Origin: Emiliania huxleyi CCMP1516
Lineage: Eukaryota
NCBI RefSeq assembly: GCF_000372725.1
Contig: NW_005201791.1
Location: forward strand, 1 to 64,000
Reading direction: 5' to 3'
Length of the DNA stretch: 64,000 bases
Position numbers and translations under genes: made by a program. Positions 17,760-61,415 of this stretch are shown piece by piece. Numbering within the stretch: the first letter of the stretch is position 1; every line of letters starts with the position of its first letter. The notes under the pieces were generated by a model. That model was not told the origin of the DNA and ran no database searches. It worked only from the letters and a program-made list of their open reading frames with translations.

Positions 17760-17824
17760 GCGTGCGCCACCTCCACCATGTGGGCGCTTGCGGGCTTCCT
17801 AAGTTCGAGCTCTCAAAAACAAAG

Positions 17825-18609
17825 TGTTAATGGTTCGATCCTCCCCAGAGTCGAACTGGCAGCCACTCGCACCGAGGAGGCGAGGTGTGGCTACGTGACC
17901 CGAAAAGGCCAGAGTCAGGAGCAACCCTCGAGCTGGGTCGCTCATATACTCAACACGCCCCCACGACGCAGCACGAGGTTGCTGCTGTATCTCCGATACC
18001 GCCGTGTTTCGAGGTAGGGCAGGCGTTCCGGGACGCGAGTTCCCCCGGGTTACCTTGGGCACTATTTTCGATCTTTTTCGTAGCGCACACACGAAGGGAC
18101 TCAAATCTTCGCAGACCGCCGTCGACCTGGGAGATCTCACCGGAGGTACCATGTTAATGGTTCGATCCTCCCCAGAGTCGAACTGGCAGCCACTCGCACC
18201 GAGGAGGCGAGGTGTGGCTACGTGACCCGAAAAGGCCAGAGTCAGGAGCAACCCTCGAGCTGGGTCGCTCATATACTCAACACGCCCCCACGACGCAGCA
18301 CGAGGTTGCTGCTGTATCTCCGATACCGCCGTGTTTCGAGGTAGGGCAGGCGTTCCGGGACGCGAGTTCCCCCGGGTTACCTTGGGCACTATTTTCGATA
18401 TTTTTCGTAGCGCACACACGAAGGGACTCAAATCTTCGCAGACCGCCGTCGACCTGGGAGATCTCACCGGAGGTACCATGTTAATGGTTCGATCCTCCCC
18501 AGAGTCGAACTGGCAGCCACTCGCACCGAGGAGGCGAGGTGTGGCTACGTGACCCGAAAAGCCCAGAGTCAGGAGCAACCCTCGAGCTGGGTCGCTCATA
18601 TACTCAACA
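17825..18609 (-). mobile_element. Tandem TRIM-like non-autonomous LTR element (LTR-int-LTR-int-LTR)
   Basis: 131 bp LTRs at 17825-17955, 18152-18282 and 18479-18609 with TGTT..AACA ends; 5 bp TSD CAAAG at 17820-17824 and 18610-18614; PBS TGGTACCTCCGGTGAGAT; PPT-like GGGGGCG. Confidence 0.92.
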
Positions 18610-18842
18610 CAAAGTTCTTGCCCTCCGGATGGCGGCGTGCCGTCGTGTTCTCGAGGTTCTCGAGGTGGATATCCTTTGGCCGCGTTGGGTAGCGAGGATT
18701 GGTGTAACCCGAGCCACGGAGGCGTGTTTTCTGACGGCCGACCGTCAGTGCACGGAGTTGCCCCTTCTTTCTCCGACTGCCCCGGCTAGTTCCCGAGGGA
18801 GGTCGTCGGGTGTGACCCCTGCGTCCCCCGAGACCTAGCGCG

Positions 18843-19538: not shown

Positions 19539-20708
19539 TCACAATAGAGTGCTAGAGCGCGGCTGCCCGGCGCGGCCGCCCGCCTTGCCGCCGCCGCGCG
19601 GCACGGGCAGCGCGACGCAGCGGTCGACGCGGCGAGTGGTGGGGTGGCCGTAGAAGCGGCGCGGCGGCGCGGCGGGCGGCGGCGTGCCCGCCGCCTCCGC
19701 CTCGAGGATTGGCGCGAGCCACTGCGGCGGCGGCTGACGGGTGGCCTCGCGCACGAGCCGGTACACGGCGGCGTCGTCCTCGGCGAGCCGCTTGCTGATG
19801 GGGGAGCCGCCGCGCAGCAGCCGCTCGAGCACCAGCCGCGCGGCCTTCCACGCCCACGGGGTGGCGTAGTAGAGCGCCGTGTCGAGCAGCCGCTTCGGCG
19901 AGAAGCGCTTCGCCGGGAAGGACGCCAGGTCGAGCGTGATGCGCACGTCGAGCCGCGTGCGCGCGCCGCCCTCGTTCCGCGGCGGCAGCGGCGTGAAGCG
20001 GCACTCGGCGCCCCCGAACGGCAGCTTGCGCACCTTGCGCGCCCAGGCGGGCAGCGCCGCGCCCGTGTCGGCGTGCTCCGACGCCGCGCGTGCGTACAGG
20101 CAGCCCTCGGCGGCGTCGGCGAATCGGTCCTCGACAACGACCGAGTAGTGGAGCAGCAGCGACGGCAGCGGCGGCATGCGCAGCCGGCAGAGCGCCTTCG
20201 CCGAGAGCACGCCGTCGGCGCCTCCCCTCGTCTGCAGGTCGAGGAAGCCGCCCTCTGCGGCGAGCGGGTTCCAGGACGGCAGCAGGTCCGCCTCTGCGAA
20301 GAGCGCAAAGACCTCGGCCGCGCCGTGAGGCGCCTCGGCGACCAGCCGGATCTCGTACTCGCAAGAGTCGGCGGCGGCGCGGCCAGCCTCGCCCGGCCGC
20401 TCCCGCACTACGCGCGTGTAGACCTGGAGGTGCGCATCAGTGCCGGCGTCGCACTCCCGCGAGAGAGCCCACCCGTGCGCCTCCGCCTCGGCGCGAGCCG
20501 CGTGCACGGCCGCCTCGTCGAGCGCGGCGACGGCGGCCGAGGCGGCGGTGCTCGGCCGGCGGCGGCGGAGCAGCAGCAGCAGCAGCAGGCCAAGCAGCAG
20601 CGTCGGCAGCGCCGCGGCGAAGAGGGCGGGAAGAGGCGGCGAGGAGGGCGGCGCCGGCGGGAGCTCGCGCGAGGGCCGCCAGGGCCGCCAGAATCGCGAG
20701 CGCAGCAT
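19539..20708 (-). CDS. Membrane-anchored START/SRPBCC-like domain protein
   Basis: N-terminal hydrophobic segment, then EVFALFAEADLLPSWNP, which resembles START domains; intronless ORF. Confidence 0.55.
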   Translation of the reverse strand: MLRSRFWRPWRPSRELPPAPPSSPPLPALFAAALPTLLLGLLLLLLLRRRRPSTAASAAVAALDEAAVHAARAEAEAHGWALSRECDAGTDAHLQVYTRVVRERPGEAGRAAADSCEYEIRLVAEAPHGAAEVFALFAEADLLPSWNPLAAEGGFLDLQTRGGADGVLSAKALCRLRMPPLPSLLLHYSVVVEDRFADAAEGCLYARAASEHADTGAALPAWARKVRKLPFGGAECRFTPLPPRNEGGARTRLDVRITLDLASFPAKRFSPKRLLDTALYYATPWAWKAARLVLERLLRGGSPISKRLAEDDAAVYRLVREATRQPPPQWLAPILEAEAAGTPPPAAPPRRFYGHPTTRRVDRCVALPVPRGGGKAGGRAGQPRSSTLL

Positions 20709-20909
20709 GTCCCGTGAACCCAGGGCCTCCAGGGCTCGCACCTCAACCTCTCACGACCGGCATAGCATGTGAAAATAGAGAAAAACGGATGCGCCAAAAA
20801 GAGGGCTACACACGGCCCTCTACGCTGGGCGCAGAACATTTTTTTGCCCGCTGTGTTGGTCCGTGCCCGACAGTCCGAGCCGAGAGTATATTGACGAGGC
20901 CGCACATTA

Positions 20910-23900
20910 ATGTCTCTCTTCGCCTCGCTCGGCGCCGCCACGCTCGAGTACAGCACGCGCGAGCGTCGCGCCGCGCTCCGCCGGCCGCTCAACCTCTGGG
21001 ACTCGCACTCGCTGAGCGGCTCGAGCGAGGGCTGCCTCTCGCCACAGCATCGCGGCCAGTCCTCTTCCGACCGCGCATCGTCCGAAGACGGCGACGAGGT
21101 GCCGTCCAGCCCCGGAGAACCGCGCTCGTCGGTCGGCGACGTGCTCGGCCTCCTCGCGTCGCTGGAGCCGCTCCTCGCGCTGACGCACGCCCTCGCGCTG
21201 GAGCGGGGCACCACGACGGGGTGGGTCGCGAGCTGCGGCACGAAGCTGGCGCAGGCGGCGGCGACCCGTCGCGCCGTGACGGACGCCGCACTGGCGGCCG
21301 CGCCGGGCGACCACGCCAACCTCGCCGCTCTGCTCAGCCGCTGCCGCACCTCGGCGGACCGCGACGTCGCTGCGGCCAGCAAGGGTTCAACGAGCGCGGC
21401 CGAGGAGGGGGCGGCCTTTGTGGCGACGATGGGCGGGTACAACGCGCTGGCGTACCAGGCGCTGGCGGTGCTCTCCGAGCTCCCCGCGTGCGCCGCCGCC
21501 ACCGCCGTCTCCGAGTTTGCGGCGCTCAAAGAGACGTTTGCGCAGATCCGCGGCTATGTGACGGGGGCGCTGCTGCTGCGCGACGCGGCGCTCGCGGCGG
21601 TGCACGGCCAAGTCAAGGGGAGCCTCGTCATAGCGTTTCACCGCCGCCGCGCGTACGCGCGCTCGATCCGCCACCAGACGCCGCGCCGGCTGCTGCGCCT
21701 GATCGGTGCGGGGCTCGAGCTGCCCGCGGGCTTGGCGCAGGTCACCCACGCGCGCTCCGGGCCTTGCACATTGAATGCCATGGGGGGCTCCTGTCTCTTA
21801 GACGTGGGGTCGCGAGGGGCTTGGAGGGCCGTTTTCGATTTGGTGCTAGCCCTGCTGACAATGGGGGTGTTCCTCGCCACGGCCCTCGCCCCGCCACCTC
21901 GTGTGTGTGGAGAAGTGCGCCTCACCCGGCCTGGCCCCGCGCAGGTCGTGCAGCGCCTCGAGGTGGAGTGCGACCTCGTGGCCCTGCGCGCCACCCTCAA
22001 GCCGCAGCAGTGGTGGGGTCTCGTCACCGCCCACATCGACAGCCTCGAGACAATGCAGCACCTGCTCCTGGGCGCGTGCGCGCGGACGGCGCAGCGACGC
22101 GCCGCCGCCGTCGCGCTCGGCGCCGGCGCGCCCGCCGCGCCGCTCTCCACCGGCCCGCGCGCCGCCTCGCCGCGCCGCCGCCCCTCCCTCCGCCAGCTCA
22201 GCGACGACGAGCCGTCGGCCGGCTCGGTTGGCTCTGTCGGCTCGACGTGCTCGGCGGGTTCGGGCCCGGCGTCGCCGCCCCGCGGCGGCCACCTTCCCCG
22301 CGCAGCCGACTCGTACACGCGCCTCTTTGGAAGCCCGGGCTACACCGACCCGCCCGCGCTGCACCGGCGCCCGAGCGACCCGCTCTGCCGGCCGGCCGGC
22401 GGCAGGCCGGCAGGAGGCGCGTCGGCCGCGCCCGCGACGCTGCTCCAAGCCGCCGCGCTGCTGACGCTCGGCCGCGCGGCGGTGCGCCACGGCGCCGACG
22501 GCGCGAACGAGCTCGCCTCGCGCCTGTCGCAGCTCCCCGCCCGGAGGCTCAAGGAGTCACTCCTCGCGCTGGTCGACGAGCGGATGGCGCGCCACTCCGC
22601 CTCGCCCTCGCCCAACGCGTCGCCCGTGGTGACGCGGCTGCACGGCGCCGCCGGCGCCGAAAACACGCCGCCCGCCTCGCCGCCCGCCTCGCCGCGGAAG
22701 TCGCCTCCGAAGCCGGCGCTGCCCGAGGCGGCGCTGCTGCAGCCGCCCGACGGCGCGCGGCTGATCGGCCTCTCGGAGATCCTCTTTGCGCACCGGATCG
22801 GCGAGGGCGGCGCCGGCGCCACCTACCTGGCGCAGTGGAACGGCGCGACCGTCGCTGTCAAGGTTGCCGGCGGCGTCTGCAAGTGGCTCGAGTCGTGGCG
22901 TGCCGAGGTGGCTGCGCTGACCGAGCTGCGCCACCCGAACGTGGTCGAATTCCTCGGCTGCGTGGTGGAGCCGCCCACGCACTGCCTCGTGCTGCAGTTC
23001 TGCGAGGGCGGAGACCTGTACGAGGCGCTCCGCAGGCCGACGCCCCCGGGGCTCGCCCTCAAGGTGGGGCGCGGCGTCGCGGCGGGGATGCTCTACCTGT
23101 GCCCCCCAGCCGCAGCCGCGTCGGCCACTGCTGGGGACGCGCCCACGACCACGTCTCCGCGGTTGCGTCCTAGGCACAAGAAGAACTACATCCACCGCGA
23201 CCTCAAGTCGTCGAACGTGCTGCTCGACGCCTCGGGCACCGCCAAGCTGATGGATTTTGGGCTCTCTCGCCAGCTCGATGTCGACGCGGAGGCGAGAGGC
23301 CGCGAGAGGCCGCGAGAGGCCGCGAGAGACGCTCGCCCCTCGCCCCTCGCACCGGAGGGGGCCTCCTCACCGCACCCCCCCCTCTCCCCCCTCTCTCTCC
23401 CCCCCCTCTCTCCCCCCTCTCTCCCCCCCGCGACGCAGGAGCAGCTGACAGCCGAGACGGGCACCTACCGCTGGATGGCGCCCGAGGCGCTCTAAATGAA
23501 CTATTGATCAACTACCAATTAACTATTAATTAACCGCTGGATGGCGCCCGAGGCGCTCCCGGCGAGAGCGGGCGTGACGCGCCCCCCCTAGCCACGCCGA
23601 CGTCGGACACGAGCCTCGTCCGCAGGTGATCCGGCACGAGCCCCATATCTCCCCATATCTCCCCACATCTCCCCATATCTCGCCCTCAGGTGATCCGGCA
23701 CGAGCCCTACTCCGCCTCCGCCGACGTCTTCTCGTACGCGATGCTCTGGTTCGAGCTCATCACCCACGAGGTGCCGCGTGTGCGTGTCCCGTGTCCTTCC
23801 GTTGGGGTGGGGGGACCGAGGGGCAGGTAAATCCCTCCCCCACGTGCCCCGGGCTTCGCACGGGGTGTGCTGGGGGGCTCCTGTCTGGGGGGGGGAGATG

Positions 23901-24321
23901 CGAGCCCCCCCCCCCCCCCTGCCCCCCCCCTGTGTGTGTGCGTGGAGAACTTCACCTCACCTTGCCTTAGGTGCCGTATGCCGACCGGCCGCCGCTGCAG
24001 GCGGCCGTCTGCACGGGGCTGCAGGGCTTGCGGCCGCCGCTACCCGCCGCGACGCCGCCCTCGGTCCGCTCGCTCATCGAGCGCTGCTGGGCGGCGCCCG
24101 AGGCGCGGCCCTCGTTCGCCGAGCTGGTGGCGCTGACGGGCGATCTGGAGCCGGCGCTCTCGCAGGAGGAGCGCGCCTGGCTCGACGCGCCGGCGGGGCA
24201 CGCGGTGTCGTACGACGAGATGGCGCCGCCCAGGCCGGAGAACCAGCCGGGCGAGCGGCCGGCCGCTGCTTGCGGGGACGCTGGGGCGGCGTCGGAGGGC
24301 CCGCCGCCGCCGGCCGACTTG
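20910..24321 (+). CDS. NIT (nitrate/nitrite-sensing)-like domain fused to a TKL/Raf-like protein kinase
   Basis: N-terminal LTHALALERGTTTGWVAS..RRAVTD..LKETFAQIRG..WWGLVTAHIDSL; kinase motifs IGEGGAG, VAVK, LRHPNVV, IHRDLKSSN, DFGLS, TAETGTYRWMAPE, DVFSYA and CW..PEARPSF over six exons. Confidence 0.85.
21741..21944 (+). mobile_element. Intron derived from the retroelement 3' end
   Basis: tcacccacgcgc..gggccttgcacattgaatgcc..ccacctcgtgtgtgtggagaag matches the 6962-7100 element; gcgcaggtc is repeated at both junctions. Confidence 0.8.
23771..23970 (+). mobile_element. Intron derived from the retroelement 3' end
   Basis: Ends gtggagaacttcacctcaccttgccttag; aggtgccg is repeated at both junctions. 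Confidence 0.75.
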
Positions 24322-25149
24322 NNNNNNNNNNNNNNNNNNNNNNNNNNNNNNNNNNNNNNNNNNNNNNNNNNNNNNNNNNNNNNNNNNNNNNNNNNNNNNN
24401 NNNNNNNNNNNNNNNNNNNNNNNNNNNNNNNNNNNNNNNNNNNNNNNNNNNNNNNNNNNNNNNNNNNNNNCGCAGGGCAGTGGCACGGGCATTACACGGC
24501 GAGCGCCGCTTGGGGCAGCTTCCGAGGTGCCCAAAGAGCACGTAGGTTCAGGCCTATGATGCCACTCTCGCGGCTTGCAGCGCGTCACTCGCGCATGCTC
24601 TCCAGGAGCTATGGCGGGCGCGTGTGTGGGGCTGTAGCCTGTGTTTGGCCGGTTCTGACCCGTTTACTATCAGTATCATGTCCGGGCCACAAAAAATCGC
24701 ACACGGGTAGCGGCTCAGGGGCCCAGTAAGTCGCGGAATCGCCAAATGTCACAACCTGCGCCACCCAGGGCTGGACCTAGTCCTAAAATCTGAGGATTCA
24801 GGATTGAGGCATCGCTTCAGTGAGGCCAAAGTGAGTTTATGGATGTGTGAGAACGGTACGGGACACGAGGAAGCACGCGGACCGACTCGTCGGCGACTCT
24901 GCTGCACGCCGTTTCAGAATTTTTCTCAGCGTGAGCGAGACGTGGAAGAGTGCCACCGTCGGGTAGGACGGGTCGGCCCGGAGCATCAGAGTAGCCGTCG
25001 TGGTCGTGGCGAGCAGCGCCGGCCACTCCGGCGCCGCGTCGGCAACATGGGAGCATGTCCACCGCCACTTCGCGGTCGCAGCGCTGTTGTCGCCCAAAAC
25101 GCCGCTATGTACCTTTTCGGGCAAACTATCGAGCTGTATGTCGATTTCG

Positions 25150-25196
25150 ACTTGACGGCGGCATGGAGGCATGATGCCTCCATGCCGCCGTCAAGT
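25150..25196. repeat. Perfect palindrome with 23 bp arms and a 1 nt loop
   Basis: acttgacggcggcatggaggcat-g-atgcctccatgccgccgtcaagt. Confidence 0.95.
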
Positions 25197-25515
25197 TGGA
25201 GCCAGTCTGCGGCGACCACAGCGCTCAGAAAGGTACATAGCGAGCTTTTCAGAGTCACGCGATTGTGCGAAATCCCACACTGGTGAATTTTGGGGCGCTG
25301 TGCACCCCCTACTTTCGAGGGCGAGGAGGACGACCTACCTTCCCCGGTTCCCGGACCCTGGCAGTTTATTGGCCCAGGCCCCAATTTCATCGAATTTATT
25401 TCAAAATCTGCAGGCGCGGAGCGCCTGCGAAAATTTTGAAGAAATTTGCAGTCGGGCCTGATTTTCATCAAGATCTTTCAAATTTGCGGTGTGGAGTTGT
25501 TGGGGGGCCGGGGGT

Positions 25516-25703
25516 GGGTTAGGGTTATTAGGGTTAGGGTTAGGGTTAGGGTTAGGGTTAGGGTTAGGGAAGGGCTAGTCTTGTTGTGTCTGTATATGCT
25601 AGCGTTGCAGGGTTCTGCGCTGGGTTCTGGCCCCCAGCGCCGACGACTAAGACTCAGTCCCGCACGCTGACCTAGGGTTAGGGTTAGGGTTATAGGGTTA
25701 GGG
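25516..25703 (+). repeat. Interstitial telomeric (TTAGGG)n, two tracts
   Basis: Tracts at ~25516-25569 and ~25673-25703. Confidence 0.95.
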
Positions 25704-25784
25704 GGGGCAACCCTCGCGTCTCCACGTCTGACGACAGGAGCCCCACGGCATTCAAAGTGCAAGGCCCGTTGCGCGCGGGTGAGC

Positions 25785-27707: not shown

Positions 27708-28886
27708 TCAGTGCGCACGCGCGGCCACCTCCACCCACTTGGGCTCCGCGCCGCGCTCGACGACGAGCGCGTGCTCTGCGAGGTTTACAGTCGGACAGAC
27801 GTGGCGCGGGATGAGGAGCAGCGGCGTGCCGCGCGGCGGTGGCGGCTCGCTGCTCGCCATTGGCAGGTGCTCCTCGCTGGGACCCAGCGCCTCGAGCTGC
27901 GGCACCTCCAACACGCGCGCGACTGGGCTGCCGGCCTCGCAAGCGAGTGCCTTGGAGCCCGCGTCGAGCGTGACGACGCACGGCTGCCCCGGCGCGCTCC
28001 ACGGGCGAGGGTGCGATACCACGCGCGATAGCACGAGCGCCGCGGGCAGGAGGCCCAGCGCCTCGCCGCCCTCCATCTCCTCCGACATGCTGTCGTGGAA
28101 GACGACCGTGCCCGGTGAGATGCGATGCGTCGGCGCCTCGTTGACTTTCTCGCCGTAGTAGCGCAGCGCCTCGAGGCAGGTGGGGGTGCCCGACGTGATC
28201 ACCTCTTCCACGGCGATCCCGCGAGACCTCAGCGTGCCCACCAGCACGTCAAGGGAACCATAGACCTTGTCGGCCTCCGAGCGGCGCTTCTCGGCAGACT
28301 CGTCTGAGAGGTGGCCTTCATAGTAGTGCAGCCCACGGAAGCGAGCTCCAGCAGCCGTCGCGATGGCGGCAATGTCGTCGGTCGCCTCGAAGGGTACACC
28401 GGTGCGATCATAGCCGGGGTTGATGTCGATGAAGATGTCAAGAGAGCCGGGCAGGCGCGGCGCGGCAGCGGCGTCCTCGCAGAGCACCCCGAGCCGCACC
28501 TCCGGAAACTCATCGGCGAGGTCAGCGAGCTGCTTCAGGCTGGGGCCGATGAGCGGGTACGCCAGCAGCACGTCGCCGTCCGTTATGGCGCGCCCTCGCA
28601 GGACACCGCACATGAGGCGCGCCTCCCTCACAGTGGCGCACTTGAAGTGGCGAACCCCGGAGGCGACACACGCTTCGTAGACGGGCGCCATCTTGGTGGT
28701 CTTGAGGTGCGGGCGCCAGCGTGCGGCGTCACCACCGCAGTGTGCGAGCATCGTGGCGAGGTTGTGCTTCACCTGGTCCATAAACACCACGAGCTGAGGC
28801 GAGGGTATCTCGGCGCGGAGCGAGGCGGGTAGCAGCTCCTCGTACGTGCCGCGATCCAGCGCCCCGAAGGGCTCGGCTGACTGCAT
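27708..28886 (-). CDS. Fold-type III PLP enzyme of the D-serine dehydratase/D-threonine aldolase (D-TA) family
   Basis: WRPHLKTTK, FKCATVREA, DINPGYDRTGV, GLHYYEGH, GTPT, LDAGSKA, SEEH and PRHVCPTVNL; intronless. Confidence 0.93.
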   Translation of the reverse strand: MQSAEPFGALDRGTYEELLPASLRAEIPSPQLVVFMDQVKHNLATMLAHCGGDAARWRPHLKTTKMAPVYEACVASGVRHFKCATVREARLMCGVLRGRAITDGDVLLAYPLIGPSLKQLADLADEFPEVRLGVLCEDAAAAPRLPGSLDIFIDINPGYDRTGVPFEATDDIAAIATAAGARFRGLHYYEGHLSDESAEKRRSEADKVYGSLDVLVGTLRSRGIAVEEVITSGTPTCLEALRYYGEKVNEAPTHRISPGTVVFHDSMSEEMEGGEALGLLPAALVLSRVVSHPRPWSAPGQPCVVTLDAGSKALACEAGSPVARVLEVPQLEALGPSEEHLPMASSEPPPPRGTPLLLIPRHVCPTVNLAEHALVVERGAEPKWVEVAARAH

Positions 28887-29071
28887 CGCCACCCGTACCC
28901 CCAAGGCATGTGGCGAGTACAGACACGCCTGCTATTCACAGCACAACGTCTCACTTGGCGGCTTCGGGCAGTGAAAAGCATCCCTTTTCCGGACGGACCC
29001 CCTGGTGTGAAAACGTGAGGCGTGGTCAACAACTCAGCGCTGAGGCGGCACCCGGAGCAGCACACGCTCAC

Positions 29072-57632: not shown

Positions 57633-59030
57633 GCCACGGCCACCACCCTTGCCACCGCCCTTGCCGCCGCCCTTGCCACCCTTTGCCGCCTTGCCTCCGC
57701 CGCGGGCGGAGGTGGGAGCGGCCTGCTGGGCTAGCATGTTGTCCGTGCTGTGGACGGGCACGTGGAACGTCAATTCATGTTCGAACGGCCTCCGGGATTC
57801 AAACAAAAAATAGCCGGGGCCCTCTCGCAATCCCTCCGACCCCCCGGGACCCGTGGGCGTCGAAGAGGCGCTCTCGGGGGGCCGTTCTGAGTTCATGCTA
57901 CCACGAAGCACACTGTGCTGCGTCAAAGCACCGGCCCCGAGTCCGTCTGCCGTCGGATTTGTGACTCCGCCGCACCGCGCCGCGGCCGGGGGCCCTCCGG
58001 AGGCCGAGGATGGCCGTGGCGGACCGGGACGAGCTCTGGGAGGTAAGGTGTCAGTGAGTATATTGTAGAGACTGTCCATGAGCACAATATCTCTAAGTCT
58101 AGCTAAGCCAGGGGAGGCGATGCCGGGCGGGGCCGTACATACAGCAGCTTGATGGTGCTTCGCCGGCGTGCGTCCCGGAGCGGTCCCGGACGGGCGGTCC
58201 GTGGGAGGAAAACGAGGGACCGCGCCGACGGCGCTCTGATTCGACTTTTAACTTCAAACAAAGACAGTCGCACGCGCCGCAGCGCGGCGCGTGCGACTGT
58301 CAGGAGCGGCTGGTCGGCCGCCATGTGGGCCTCCGGGCCCGCTGCGGCGGGGGACGCCGCAAGCTGTCAGAGAAGGAGCATGACGAAGGCGAACACTGCG
58401 AAGTAATTGACTGCCAGATGATCCGAATCGGCTCGTTGCTCGTTCGCAGCACCGTTGGCTCCGGTCCGCGGTTTGAGGGAGGGGCAGCCGCAGCACGAAG
58501 AGCCATGTCAAGAGAGCCGCAGCGAGTGCCAGCAAGACCAGGCGCCAGGCGCGCATCGCCCAGATGGACTGGCGGATCTGCCCAACACACCCGGCACCAA
58601 GCCCCCACAGCGCGGCAGCGGGCCACAAGGTGAGCCTGCAAAGCCCCAAGAGCAGCCAGTGCGCGACTGGGAAGACGGTGACCTGCCAGAGCGCCGGAAC
58701 TAGGAGGATCCACAGAGTGCCGAACAGAACCACGTGTCTTGGGCCCGCTCCTCTTCGAGACGAGGTAAACCTAGCCAAGCAGGGGAGCGACATGGTCGAA
58801 TCCAAAATCTTGGAGCACTTGGAGTGCAGTCATTAGCCTCACATCCAGGGCCGGGGAGCTCAGAAGCGCACCCAGCGGGCCGGATGATCGGGATCGGGTT
58901 GCGGGCAAGAGAGCCCTAGCCCCGGGGGTGCGCGTTCGCAGGGCAAGGGCTGTAAAGTAAACACGGGTCTCCGAGAATCCGATTTTTTTCTGCCAGCACA
59001 TTGGCACTGCTCGCGGCCATCTCGCGCATT

Positions 59031-61415
59031 ATGCTCCTCGCCACCGCTGCCACCGCGCTCAGCGTGCGCATGTCGGCCGCGCCCGCGCCGGCGAGCGCCT
59101 CTGCCTCCTCGACTTCGGGCGCCGCCGACGCGCCGCTGCTGCTGCGAGCGGCGCGAGGCGAGGTCACCGAGTCGACGCCAGTGTGGATGATGCGGCAGGC
59201 GGGCAGGCACATGCAGGTGTACCGCGACCTGGTGAAGGACTACCCGACGTTTCGCGAGCGCTCCGAGATTCCCGACGTCTCGTATGCCGTCTCGATGCAG
59301 CCGCGCGACGCCTATGGCACCGACGGAGTGATTTTGTTCTCCGACATCCTCACGCCTCTGCCTGCAATGGGCGTCGACTTTGCGATCTCCGAGGGCGGAG
59401 GGATCACGATCGACCCGATCCGCACGCGCGAGGCCTTCGCCAAGATGACCGCCGTCCCCTTCGAGCCCGAGACGAAGATCAGCTTTGTCGGCGACGTGCT
59501 CAAGGCGCGCGCCGCCTTTCTCGACCTCGCCGCCTCTCGTCCCTGCCTTCTCCTCCCCGCACCGCCCCCGCCCCCCCCCTCCCACACTCGACCCCCCGCT
59601 CTCCGCCGCCCACTCCCTTCCGCCGCCCTCTCTCGCCGCCGCCTCCCTCGCCGCCGCCCTCGCCGCCGCCGCCCTCGCCGCCGCCCTCGCCGCCGCCGCC
59701 CTCGCAGCCGCCCTCGCCACCGCCCTCGCCACCGCCCTCGCCTGACCGCGGCTTCGCCTGCGGCTGCAGCGGCTGCGCGCGACGTTGGCCGGCACCGACG
59801 CGACGGTGCTCGGGTTCGTCGGCCTCCCGTTCACGCTGGGCACGTACCTCATCGAGGGCGCCACCGGCACGAAGACAGGCTTCGCCGCGATGAGGCGCCA
59901 CACCTCCCCATACCTCCCCATGCCTCCCCATACCTCCCCATACCTCCCATACCTCCCCATACCTCCCCATACCTCCCATACCTCCCCACATCGCCCCACA
60001 TCGCCCCACATCGCCCCACATCGCCCCACATCTCACATCTACATCTCCCCGCATCTCACATCTACATCTCCCCGCATCTCCCCGCAGGCAGCTCCGAGAG
60101 TCCGACCCGCAACTCGTGGCCGACATGCTCAAGCTGCTCGGTCGCCCCTCCTCTCCCCTCCTCCTCCCCCGTCCTCTCCCCTCCTCTCCCCTCCTCTCCC
60201 CTCCTCCTCCCTCCTCCTCGCCGCCTCCTCGCCCTCCCGCAGCAGATTCCCCTCCCCTCGAGCGCCGCGGAGCCTCCCTGCAGGCGACCGGATCGCGCAG
60301 TACGCAATCTACCAGATCGACTCTGGCGCGCAGGTGCGGAGACACCTCCCCAGACCTCCCCAGACCTCCCCAGACCTCCCCAGACCTCCCCAGACCTCCC
60401 CAGACCTCCCCAGATTTGGGGGGCAGCTCCCCCCCCCCCCCTGTCGTACCCCCACTTGAGGGTCGGCAGCCCCCCCCACCCCCCCCCCCCCCCCTTCACT
60501 CGAGGGTCCGGCGAGGTCAGCCTAACGGAGCTCAGAGCTCTCATCATTGCAGGCAGACAGACACAGACAGACAGGCGCGGGCAGACAGAAGCGGGTGTGG
60601 CCTGCCAGGTGGTCCAAGTCTTCGACTCGTGGGCGGGCCACCTCACGCCGGACGAGTTTGACGAGTGGGCGGCCCCCTTCCAGCGGCAAGTCGTTGGCGC
60701 CATCAAGGCGGCCGCTCTCCTCCTCTCCTCTCCTCTCCGCCTTTCTGCTCCCACCACTCCTCCTCTCCTCTCTCTCCCCTCTCCCTCCTCCTCCCTCTCC
60801 TCCTCTCTCCTCCTGCCCCCTCTCCCTTTCCCCTCCTCCGTCTCCGCTCCGCTCCCCCTGCTCCTCCCTCTCCTCTCCAGCTGAGACAGGCCCACACGTG
60901 CTCCCAGGCTGCGCGGCCCGATACGCCCGTAATCATCTACATGGCCCCCGACACCCACTCCAAGGAGGGGGCGCTTATCACCAAGCTCGCGGCCTCGGGC
61001 GCAAACGTCGTCTCGGTCGACCACACCCTCCCGATCTCCGCGGCGCGCGAGCTGCTCGACGAGGCCGGCTACGAGTCGGTCGGCTTGCAGGGCAACCTCG
61101 ACCCCGCCATCCTCGCCGAGGGGTCGGAGGAGGAGATCGTCGCCGCCGCGCAGGAGTGACTGCTGCTCTGAGTCTCAGCCTGCTTCCTGCGACAGCTAGC
61201 GCCACTCTTGCTGAGCTCAGCAGCGGCGTCAGCATCCGCATCATTCACTCCTATTACTCCTCCAAGTCTTCTCCCTGCTGCCCCGCGCGCAGGACATCCT
61301 CAAGAAGATGGCTGGTCGGCCGCACATCATGAACCTCGGCCACGGCATCGAGCCGACCACCCCCGAGCCGTCGGCCAACCTCTTTGTCAAGACGGTCCAG
61401 GAGTGGCGCAACTGA
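59031..61415 (+). CDS. hemE: Uroporphyrinogen decarboxylase, probably plastid-targeted; multi-exon
   Basis: Signal-like N-terminus; [50 protein letters not shown] and HIMNLGHGI. Confidence 0.96.

Follow-up and report, generated by a model that had tools for sequence, protein, structure and literature searches.

Fusion of a NIT domain with a TKL kinase in the haptophyte Emiliania huxleyi, with altered residues in the predicted nitrate pocket

The window analysed here, the first 64,000 nucleotides of contig NW_005201791.1 of Emiliania huxleyi CCMP1516, is GC-rich eukaryotic DNA by composition and carries an intact, spliced haptophyte gene in which a NIT domain, a linker and a TKL kinase are encoded in one six-exon frame that starts at position 20910 of the forward strand and extends beyond 24321. 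The gene is a divergent-pocket haptophyte member of a family whose layout has already been published, and the extension of the family range to haptophytes is what is added here. For this soluble kinase there is about an even chance that the NIT domain acts as a cytosolic nitrate/nitrite switch whose sensing is weaker than, or shifted from, that of canonical members; a domain that is ligand-blind or retuned is nearly as likely.

Gene structure and transcript support

The ATG at 20910 is the first in-frame ATG downstream of an in-frame TGA (20892-20894), and the 5' ends of the RNA contigs lie at 20890-20928. From this ATG the unspliced frame stays open to 23492, crossing introns 1-3, all of which are in frame. 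With the five introns removed, no stop interrupts the frame for at least 861 codons, up to an N gap (24322-24470) that interrupts the 3' end of the gene and is preceded by no stop codon. The initial annotation, which gave the gene as 20910..24321 with an intron at 21741-21944, was right about the start and that intron, but its end is merely the edge of the gap, contigs from RNA extending 235-313 nt beyond 24321 and staying open for at least 10 codons, and four more introns lie within the kinase.

All features are on the forward strand. Exon 1 (20910..21740), placed by the ORF start and RNA contigs, encodes the start ATG, an N-terminus rich in Ser (aa 1-84) and the greater part of the NIT domain, and is followed by intron 1 (21741..21944; GT-AG, 204 nt, in frame), which contains a false TM segment. 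Exon 2 (21945..23098), supported by RNA contigs and motifs, covers the last NIT helices, a Ser/Pro-rich linker and the kinase N-lobe (GEGGAG, VAVK and the alphaC Glu), and is bounded by intron 2 (23099..23173; GT-AG, 75 nt, in frame), which, like intron 1, is skipped in 4/4 runs. Exons 3 to 5 follow from the spliced frame and RNA contigs: exon 3 (23174..23291) encodes the catalytic loop and DFG, exon 4 (23439..23486) the activation segment up to APE, and exon 5 occupies 23690..23770. Between them lie intron 3 (23292..23438; GC-AG, 147 nt, in frame), whose removal is directly visible in one of four runs (X1 record 1), a repeat stretch having been passed over in mapping, and intron 4 (23487..23689; GC-AG, 203 nt). 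Intron 5 (23771..23970; GT-AG, 200 nt) precedes exon 6 (23971..24321), which is read from the spliced frame and encodes the last part of the kinase and a tail of low complexity that is open into the N gap. GC donors thus occur in two of the five introns, which fits Emiliania-type haptophytes, in which they are reported to make up 56% of donors (PMC4028052).

The contigs are assemblies of public runs, not single molecules, and the intron support comes from six different RNA-type runs of five studies, two of them recorded as RNA and four taken as RNA by guess. Introns 1, 2, 4 and 5 are absent from contigs in all four runs of a first comparison, and introns 4 and 5 from contigs in three RNA-type runs of a second, so that both are skipped in 6/6 RNA-type runs; in run X15, which was not counted as RNA-type, intron sequence is present and neither of the two is skipped. 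A 2181 nt contig (X1 record 1) covers 20890-23487 with introns 1-3 spliced out and reads from the NIT domain through the kinase APE, and a spliced contig of run X2 covers 20928-23289. On the X1 contig, which spans the start to APE, two separate genes are rejected, and the two separate transcripts that would have undone the initial annotation are not what is seen.

The 5' part of intron 4 is also retained in contigs of the same six RNA-type runs, and this retention leads to a stop two codons past APE. The idea of retention as a special regulated switch is not supported, as isoforms cannot be ranked by the depth of contigs, and retention is widespread in Emiliania huxleyi, having been reported for 89% of 535 introns inspected (PMC4028052). 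The intron itself consists of three abutting GC/GT-AG units of 66, 73 and 64 nt, with its donor and acceptor junctions duplicated exactly (25 nt and 21 nt), and in an X9 contig units 1-2 are kept and unit 3 is skipped, a form consistent with splicing in steps or with an indel between strains.

Several other features of the window were recorded. A divergent 403-codon frame (19542-20750, minus strand), whose start is some 200 nt away from the ATG of the kinase gene, shows strongly biased codon usage, is hydrophobic over a stretch at its N-terminus, and gave no Pfam match at 1e-3. Farther upstream, a unit of about 327 nt is present in roughly three head-to-tail copies at 17800-18690, seen as repeated translations. 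Just beyond the N gap lies a high-copy repeat (24550-25300; depth 10^4-10^5 in X15) followed by interstitial TTAGGG arrays (25520-25710). A single long frame at 27711-28931 (minus strand) encodes a PLP enzyme of the alanine-racemase-N / D-serine-dehydratase type, a family that is mostly bacterial, and a 642-codon frame at 58956-60881 (plus strand) contains two uroporphyrinogen-decarboxylase-like stretches.

The NIT domain and its anion pocket

The NIT domain (21162..22079, plus strand; spliced aa 85-322, split by intron 1) is identified by Pfam, profile and fold. The motifs that had suggested it at the N-terminus are present: HALALERG..G.VAS at aa 93-108 (R99 at 21204), RRAVTD at aa 120-125, KETFAQIRG at aa 207-215 (R214 at 21549) and WWGLVTAHIDSL at aa 300-311. 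The Pfam NIT profile (PF08376) matches window:21120-22130 with 39.1 bits and an E-value of 1.4e-9, against a cut-off of 24.9. A profile built on 16 family NIT regions reached NasR (4AKK) at E 2.1e-8, the only match below 1e-3 among 15, and aligned both Arg motifs of the window domain; a single-sequence PDB search did not reach NasR. The AF2 model of the domain has a pLDDT of 81 and is low mainly across intron 1, a segment that is a gap in 20/20 aligned relatives and mostly has a pLDDT below 50. Compared with 4AKK (VIA), this model gives a Z of 23.9 and an rmsd of 2.7 over 237 aligned residues, the next match having a Z of 11.6; in Foldseek 4AKK is again the top match, with an E-value of 1.8e-3 that misses the 1e-3 line. 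Taken from AF2, VIA and Foldseek together, the domain has the NasR-like fold of two four-helix bundles, and an Atlas search with the NIT domain of a relative led to bacterial NIT clusters.

The only TM-like 19-mer (KD 2.26) is located in intron 1, and the maximum in the spliced protein is 1.66, in agreement with the initial annotation, which had found no TM segment once that intron was removed. A TM receptor is therefore rejected, the hydrophobic stretch being intron 1, and on the basis of hydropathy the product is likely soluble, without a membrane segment.

The pocket was numbered through the 4AKK profile alignment, with the offset set by E175/R176 of NasR (PMC7496416), so that A96-x-E98-R99 corresponds to NasR Q47/E49/R50 and K207-E208-x-x-A211-x-I213-R214 to K169/E170/G173/E175/R176. 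In NasR the anion site has been described as two arginines, one Gly and one Gln (PMC8199190), and the E175A exchange was reported to abolish RNA binding (PMC7496416). Both signature arginines are kept in the window, as first noted, R99 being found in 54/54 and R214 in 53/54 of the relatives that span both NIT halves, and E98, K207, E208, R121 and R146 are also kept. What had been overlooked is that the pocket otherwise departs from the family: the motif-1 Gln, present in 54/54 relatives, is Ala (A96), and the Glu equivalent to NasR E175, present in 47/54, is Ile (I213). Position 238, Asp in 50/54 relatives, is Ser here, and position 246, Gln in 49/54, is Arg. The full pocket Q-x-E-R / K-E-x-x-G-x-E-R is thus not found, with Q changed to A, G to A and E to I; the window protein is off at three of the eight NasR-mapped positions, whereas 44/54 relatives match all eight, and it misses six of the 22 best-conserved NIT positions, as many or more being missed by 4/54 relatives. 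Ala at the G173 position was dropped as a candidate defect, as it is found in 3/3 bacterial NIT-kinase rows and in several algal rows. Given the change of two conserved pocket residues, nitrate binding by the window NIT appears doubtful.

No variant read was found at the codons of A96 and I213 in four runs. Strain variants in the CDS comprise 12 synonymous and 8 non-synonymous changes on 714 and 1869 sites, respectively, with four synonymous and one non-synonymous within the NIT domain; these numbers are small.

Kinase, linker and family history

The TKL (MLK/CTR1/Raf-like) Ser/Thr kinase (22776..24138, plus strand; spliced aa 555-800, exons 2-6) is defined by motifs and profile. The unspliced frame scores 83.9 bits with Pfam PK_Tyr_Ser-Thr. 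In the spliced frame, from which the kinase-region motif TAETGTYRWMAPE was read, HRDLKSSN, DFG, GTYRWMAPE and DVFSYA are present, and every expected element was found, from the Gly loop, VAxK and the alphaC Glu through HRDLKxxN, DFG and GTxxWMAPE to the alphaF Asp and the subdomain-XI Arg, as anticipated for a complete TKL kinase following the NIT domain. The catalytic motifs are intact, and from them the kinase would be active. By the family profile the nearest solved kinases are MLK4, MLK1 and CTR1, with ZAK and TAK1 also matched, and the fold of a relative is best matched by CTR1. The kinase domain is thus like those of MLK / CTR1 / Raf-like TKL kinases, while the regulatory region is here a NIT domain.

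The linker contains a conserved helical hairpin (aa ~443-492; 22440..22589, plus strand), recognized in a 57-row family alignment by a Lys in 49/56 and a Leu in 42/56 rows, and modelled by AF2 as two helices in a relative. An Atlas search with the hairpin gave no usable match; the hairpin is likely a coupling element. For P0017, a canonical relative, the AF2 model reaches a pTM of 0.83 across 667 aa, which is high for two unlinked domains and is scored here by pTM alone, and hints that the NIT domain and the kinase may be held in a fixed arrangement.

A search of a representative library found a NIT region, by local profile, in 72 of the best 150 matches, and both the Pfam NIT and kinase cut-offs were passed by 41 of 60 hand-picked matches that were scanned. 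Organisms named for the 30 clusters that were checked are Isochrysis galbana, which is the nearest, Scyphosphaera apsteinii (two), Fistulifera solaris, Tryblionella compressa and Corethron hystrix, with no Pelagomonas protein named among them. A word-index search with the unspliced NIT region returned no matches and a NIT-profile search of longer proteins eight; about 8000 candidates were scored in each search, and the family ranges are therefore lower bounds. The diatom NIT-kinases (Fistulifera solaris GAX13150.1, deposited as 'MAPKKK 9', Tryblionella and Corethron) share the kinase clade, the NIT motifs and the linker hairpin with the window protein, but most diatom-type members differ from it in having a long insert between the NIT halves and canonical pocket residues. 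A different architecture is seen in the relative P0086 (1152 aa), in which the NIT region (aa 611-908) is preceded by a long N-terminal stretch of uncharacterised sequence.

A quick kinase tree (99 rows) places every one of the 48 NIT-bearing rows within one 68-row clade (SH-aLRT 99), the rest of which consists of 17 rows with a kinase start in the first 200 residues, mostly fragments, and three without a detected NIT domain. More careful trees (39 rows each for NIT and kinase, seven NIT-tree rows being omitted from the latter) recovered largely the same subgroups, and this agreement suggests that the NIT-TKL pairing goes back to one old fusion with co-inheritance of both parts. The window protein belongs to a starred NIT-tree subclade of six rows (support 100/99), in which the E175 position is I, L or M in 6/6, the second Arg is missing in 2/6 and the motif-1 Gln is lacking in the window alone. 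NIT identity to four orthologues is 41-47%, and kinase identity is 76-79% in the three that cover the kinase. The second Arg and the KE pair are absent from the two nearest, Isochrysis-type orthologues (P0001 and P0213), which indicates that the lineage tolerates loss of the site. In both, the second half of the NIT pocket is wholly lost and the kinase looks intact.

The view of the NIT-kinase combination as unprecedented is contradicted by Pelagomonas calceolata, for which two soluble NIT + kinase genes have been described and a phosphorylation-based sensing of internal nitrate/nitrite has been proposed (Guerin et al. 2022, PMC9481584). These NIT + Ser/Thr/Tyr-kinase proteins share with the window gene the domain pair, the lack of a TM segment, the phytoplankter host and the proposed role. 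By contrast, their homologues were reported only from pelagophytes, dictyochophytes and a single putative cryptophyte, with NIT domains noted in various phyla, whereas the window gene is a haptophyte one with diatom relatives and an altered pocket. Among the papers listed in literature searches, no title or abstract opening points to haptophyte or diatom NIT-kinases, and a 2023 paper on NIT domains in eukaryotes (Monteagudo-Cascales et al.) may include some. The design proposed at the outset, in which a phytoplankter has NIT and TKL kinase in one soluble chain, is supported by Pfam, RNA contigs and fold.

Nitrate sensing and competing readings

By analogy with NasR of Klebsiella oxytoca (4AKK), which shares the soluble one-component design, the NIT fold and both pocket arginines, an anion would be bound between R99 on helix 1 and R214 on helix 5, and binding would shift both four-helix bundles. 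The last NIT helix is predicted, from the model of a relative, to extend into the conserved linker hairpin, and this helix and the hairpin would couple the domain to the kinase; binding might release (or impose) autoinhibition of the kinase, release being borrowed from NasR, which is reported to operate in this way (PMC7496416); the putative targets are a MAP2K or regulators of nitrogen assimilation. NasR differs in its output, ANTAR RNA binding rather than a TKL kinase, in Q47 and E175, which correspond to Ala and Ile here, and in overall sequence (16% identity).

Weakened or shifted nitrate/nitrite sensing draws support from the Pfam match, the NasR profile and fold matches, the two retained arginines, the synonymous-leaning variants and the pTM of P0017. 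Published observations also favour it, namely the autoinhibition release of NasR, the binding of nitrate and nitrite at 2-47 uM reported for the NIT domains of PscN and Dd15070 (PMC12358799), and the expression changes of the Pelagomonas genes with nitrogen supply (PMC9481584), described as modest and gene-specific in the later study (Guerin et al. 2025, PMC12054182). It is weakened by A96, I213, the changes at positions 238 and 246 and the Arg loss in P0001/P0213. A further point against it is the lack of any nitrogen-assimilation gene or cluster among 39 of the 77 candidate window frames, those that were scanned. The NIT domain of PA4520, described as binding neither nitrate nor nitrite (PMC6381276), counts against it as well, and indicates that NIT annotation alone is no proof of binding.

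The main competitor, to which a smaller but still considerable probability is assigned, is that the NIT domain of the subclade no longer reads nitrate/nitrite and has become a ligand-blind autoinhibitory or scaffold domain, or one that responds to another small ligand, in a divergent paralogue of real sensors. The aliphatic residue or Met at the E175 position throughout the starred subclade, the loss of the second Arg in two of its six rows and the missing Gln of the window point this way, as does the lower identity of the orthologues in the NIT domain than in the kinase, and PA4520 together with a further non-binding NIT domain (PMC13343842) provides precedent. On the other hand, both arginines and the remaining charged residues listed above are kept in the window, the Ala for Gly is shared with the bacterial and several algal rows, and few amino-acid strain variants occur in the NIT domain.

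A broader interpretation, considered rather unlikely, would make the old NIT-TKL fusion the source of cytosolic nitrate/nitrite receptor kinases shared by haptophytes and diatoms, with the window subclade retuned to another ligand or, itself ligand-blind, modulating the canonical sensors. The retuned pocket that it invokes, with Glu turned aliphatic in all members, Gln turned to Ala in the window and the second Arg lost in Isochrysis, is held just as tentatively.

It is improbable that the signal to which the kinase responds is nitric oxide, or a product of its breakdown, instead of nitrogen stores, in the manner of the guanylyl cyclase NIT-GC1 of Platynereis, which is reported to make cGMP after addition of an NO donor in a way that requires its NIT domain, with nitrite or nitrate not excluded as its ligand by the authors (10.1101/2023.08.02.551600). 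Animal NIT-guanylyl cyclases (placozoans, Platynereis NIT-GC1) resemble the window protein in that a eukaryotic NIT domain controls an enzyme, but they are membrane-anchored, have a cyclase output and are linked to NO signalling, whereas nothing in the present analysis connects the window gene with NO and inspection of the family alignment revealed no haem or metal motif. An artefact (two genes, a membrane receptor or a pseudogene), which the 3' end in a gap, the assembled nature of the contigs and the dead kinase expected from the RNA part retaining intron 4 might suggest, is very remote and already largely refuted by one continuous frame, a spliced contig spanning NIT and kinase, the same fusion in 41/60 scanned relatives, the position of the TM-like stretch in an intron that is removed, and a joint with intron 4 fully spliced in 6/6 RNA-type runs.

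A soluble sensor-kinase is simple to express and assay, and the canonical and altered family members form a ready contrast set for binding tests, in which the window copy would be a useful contrast, being among the weaker candidates for a true sensor. The haptophyte and diatom members widen the hypothesis that has been published for pelagophytes.
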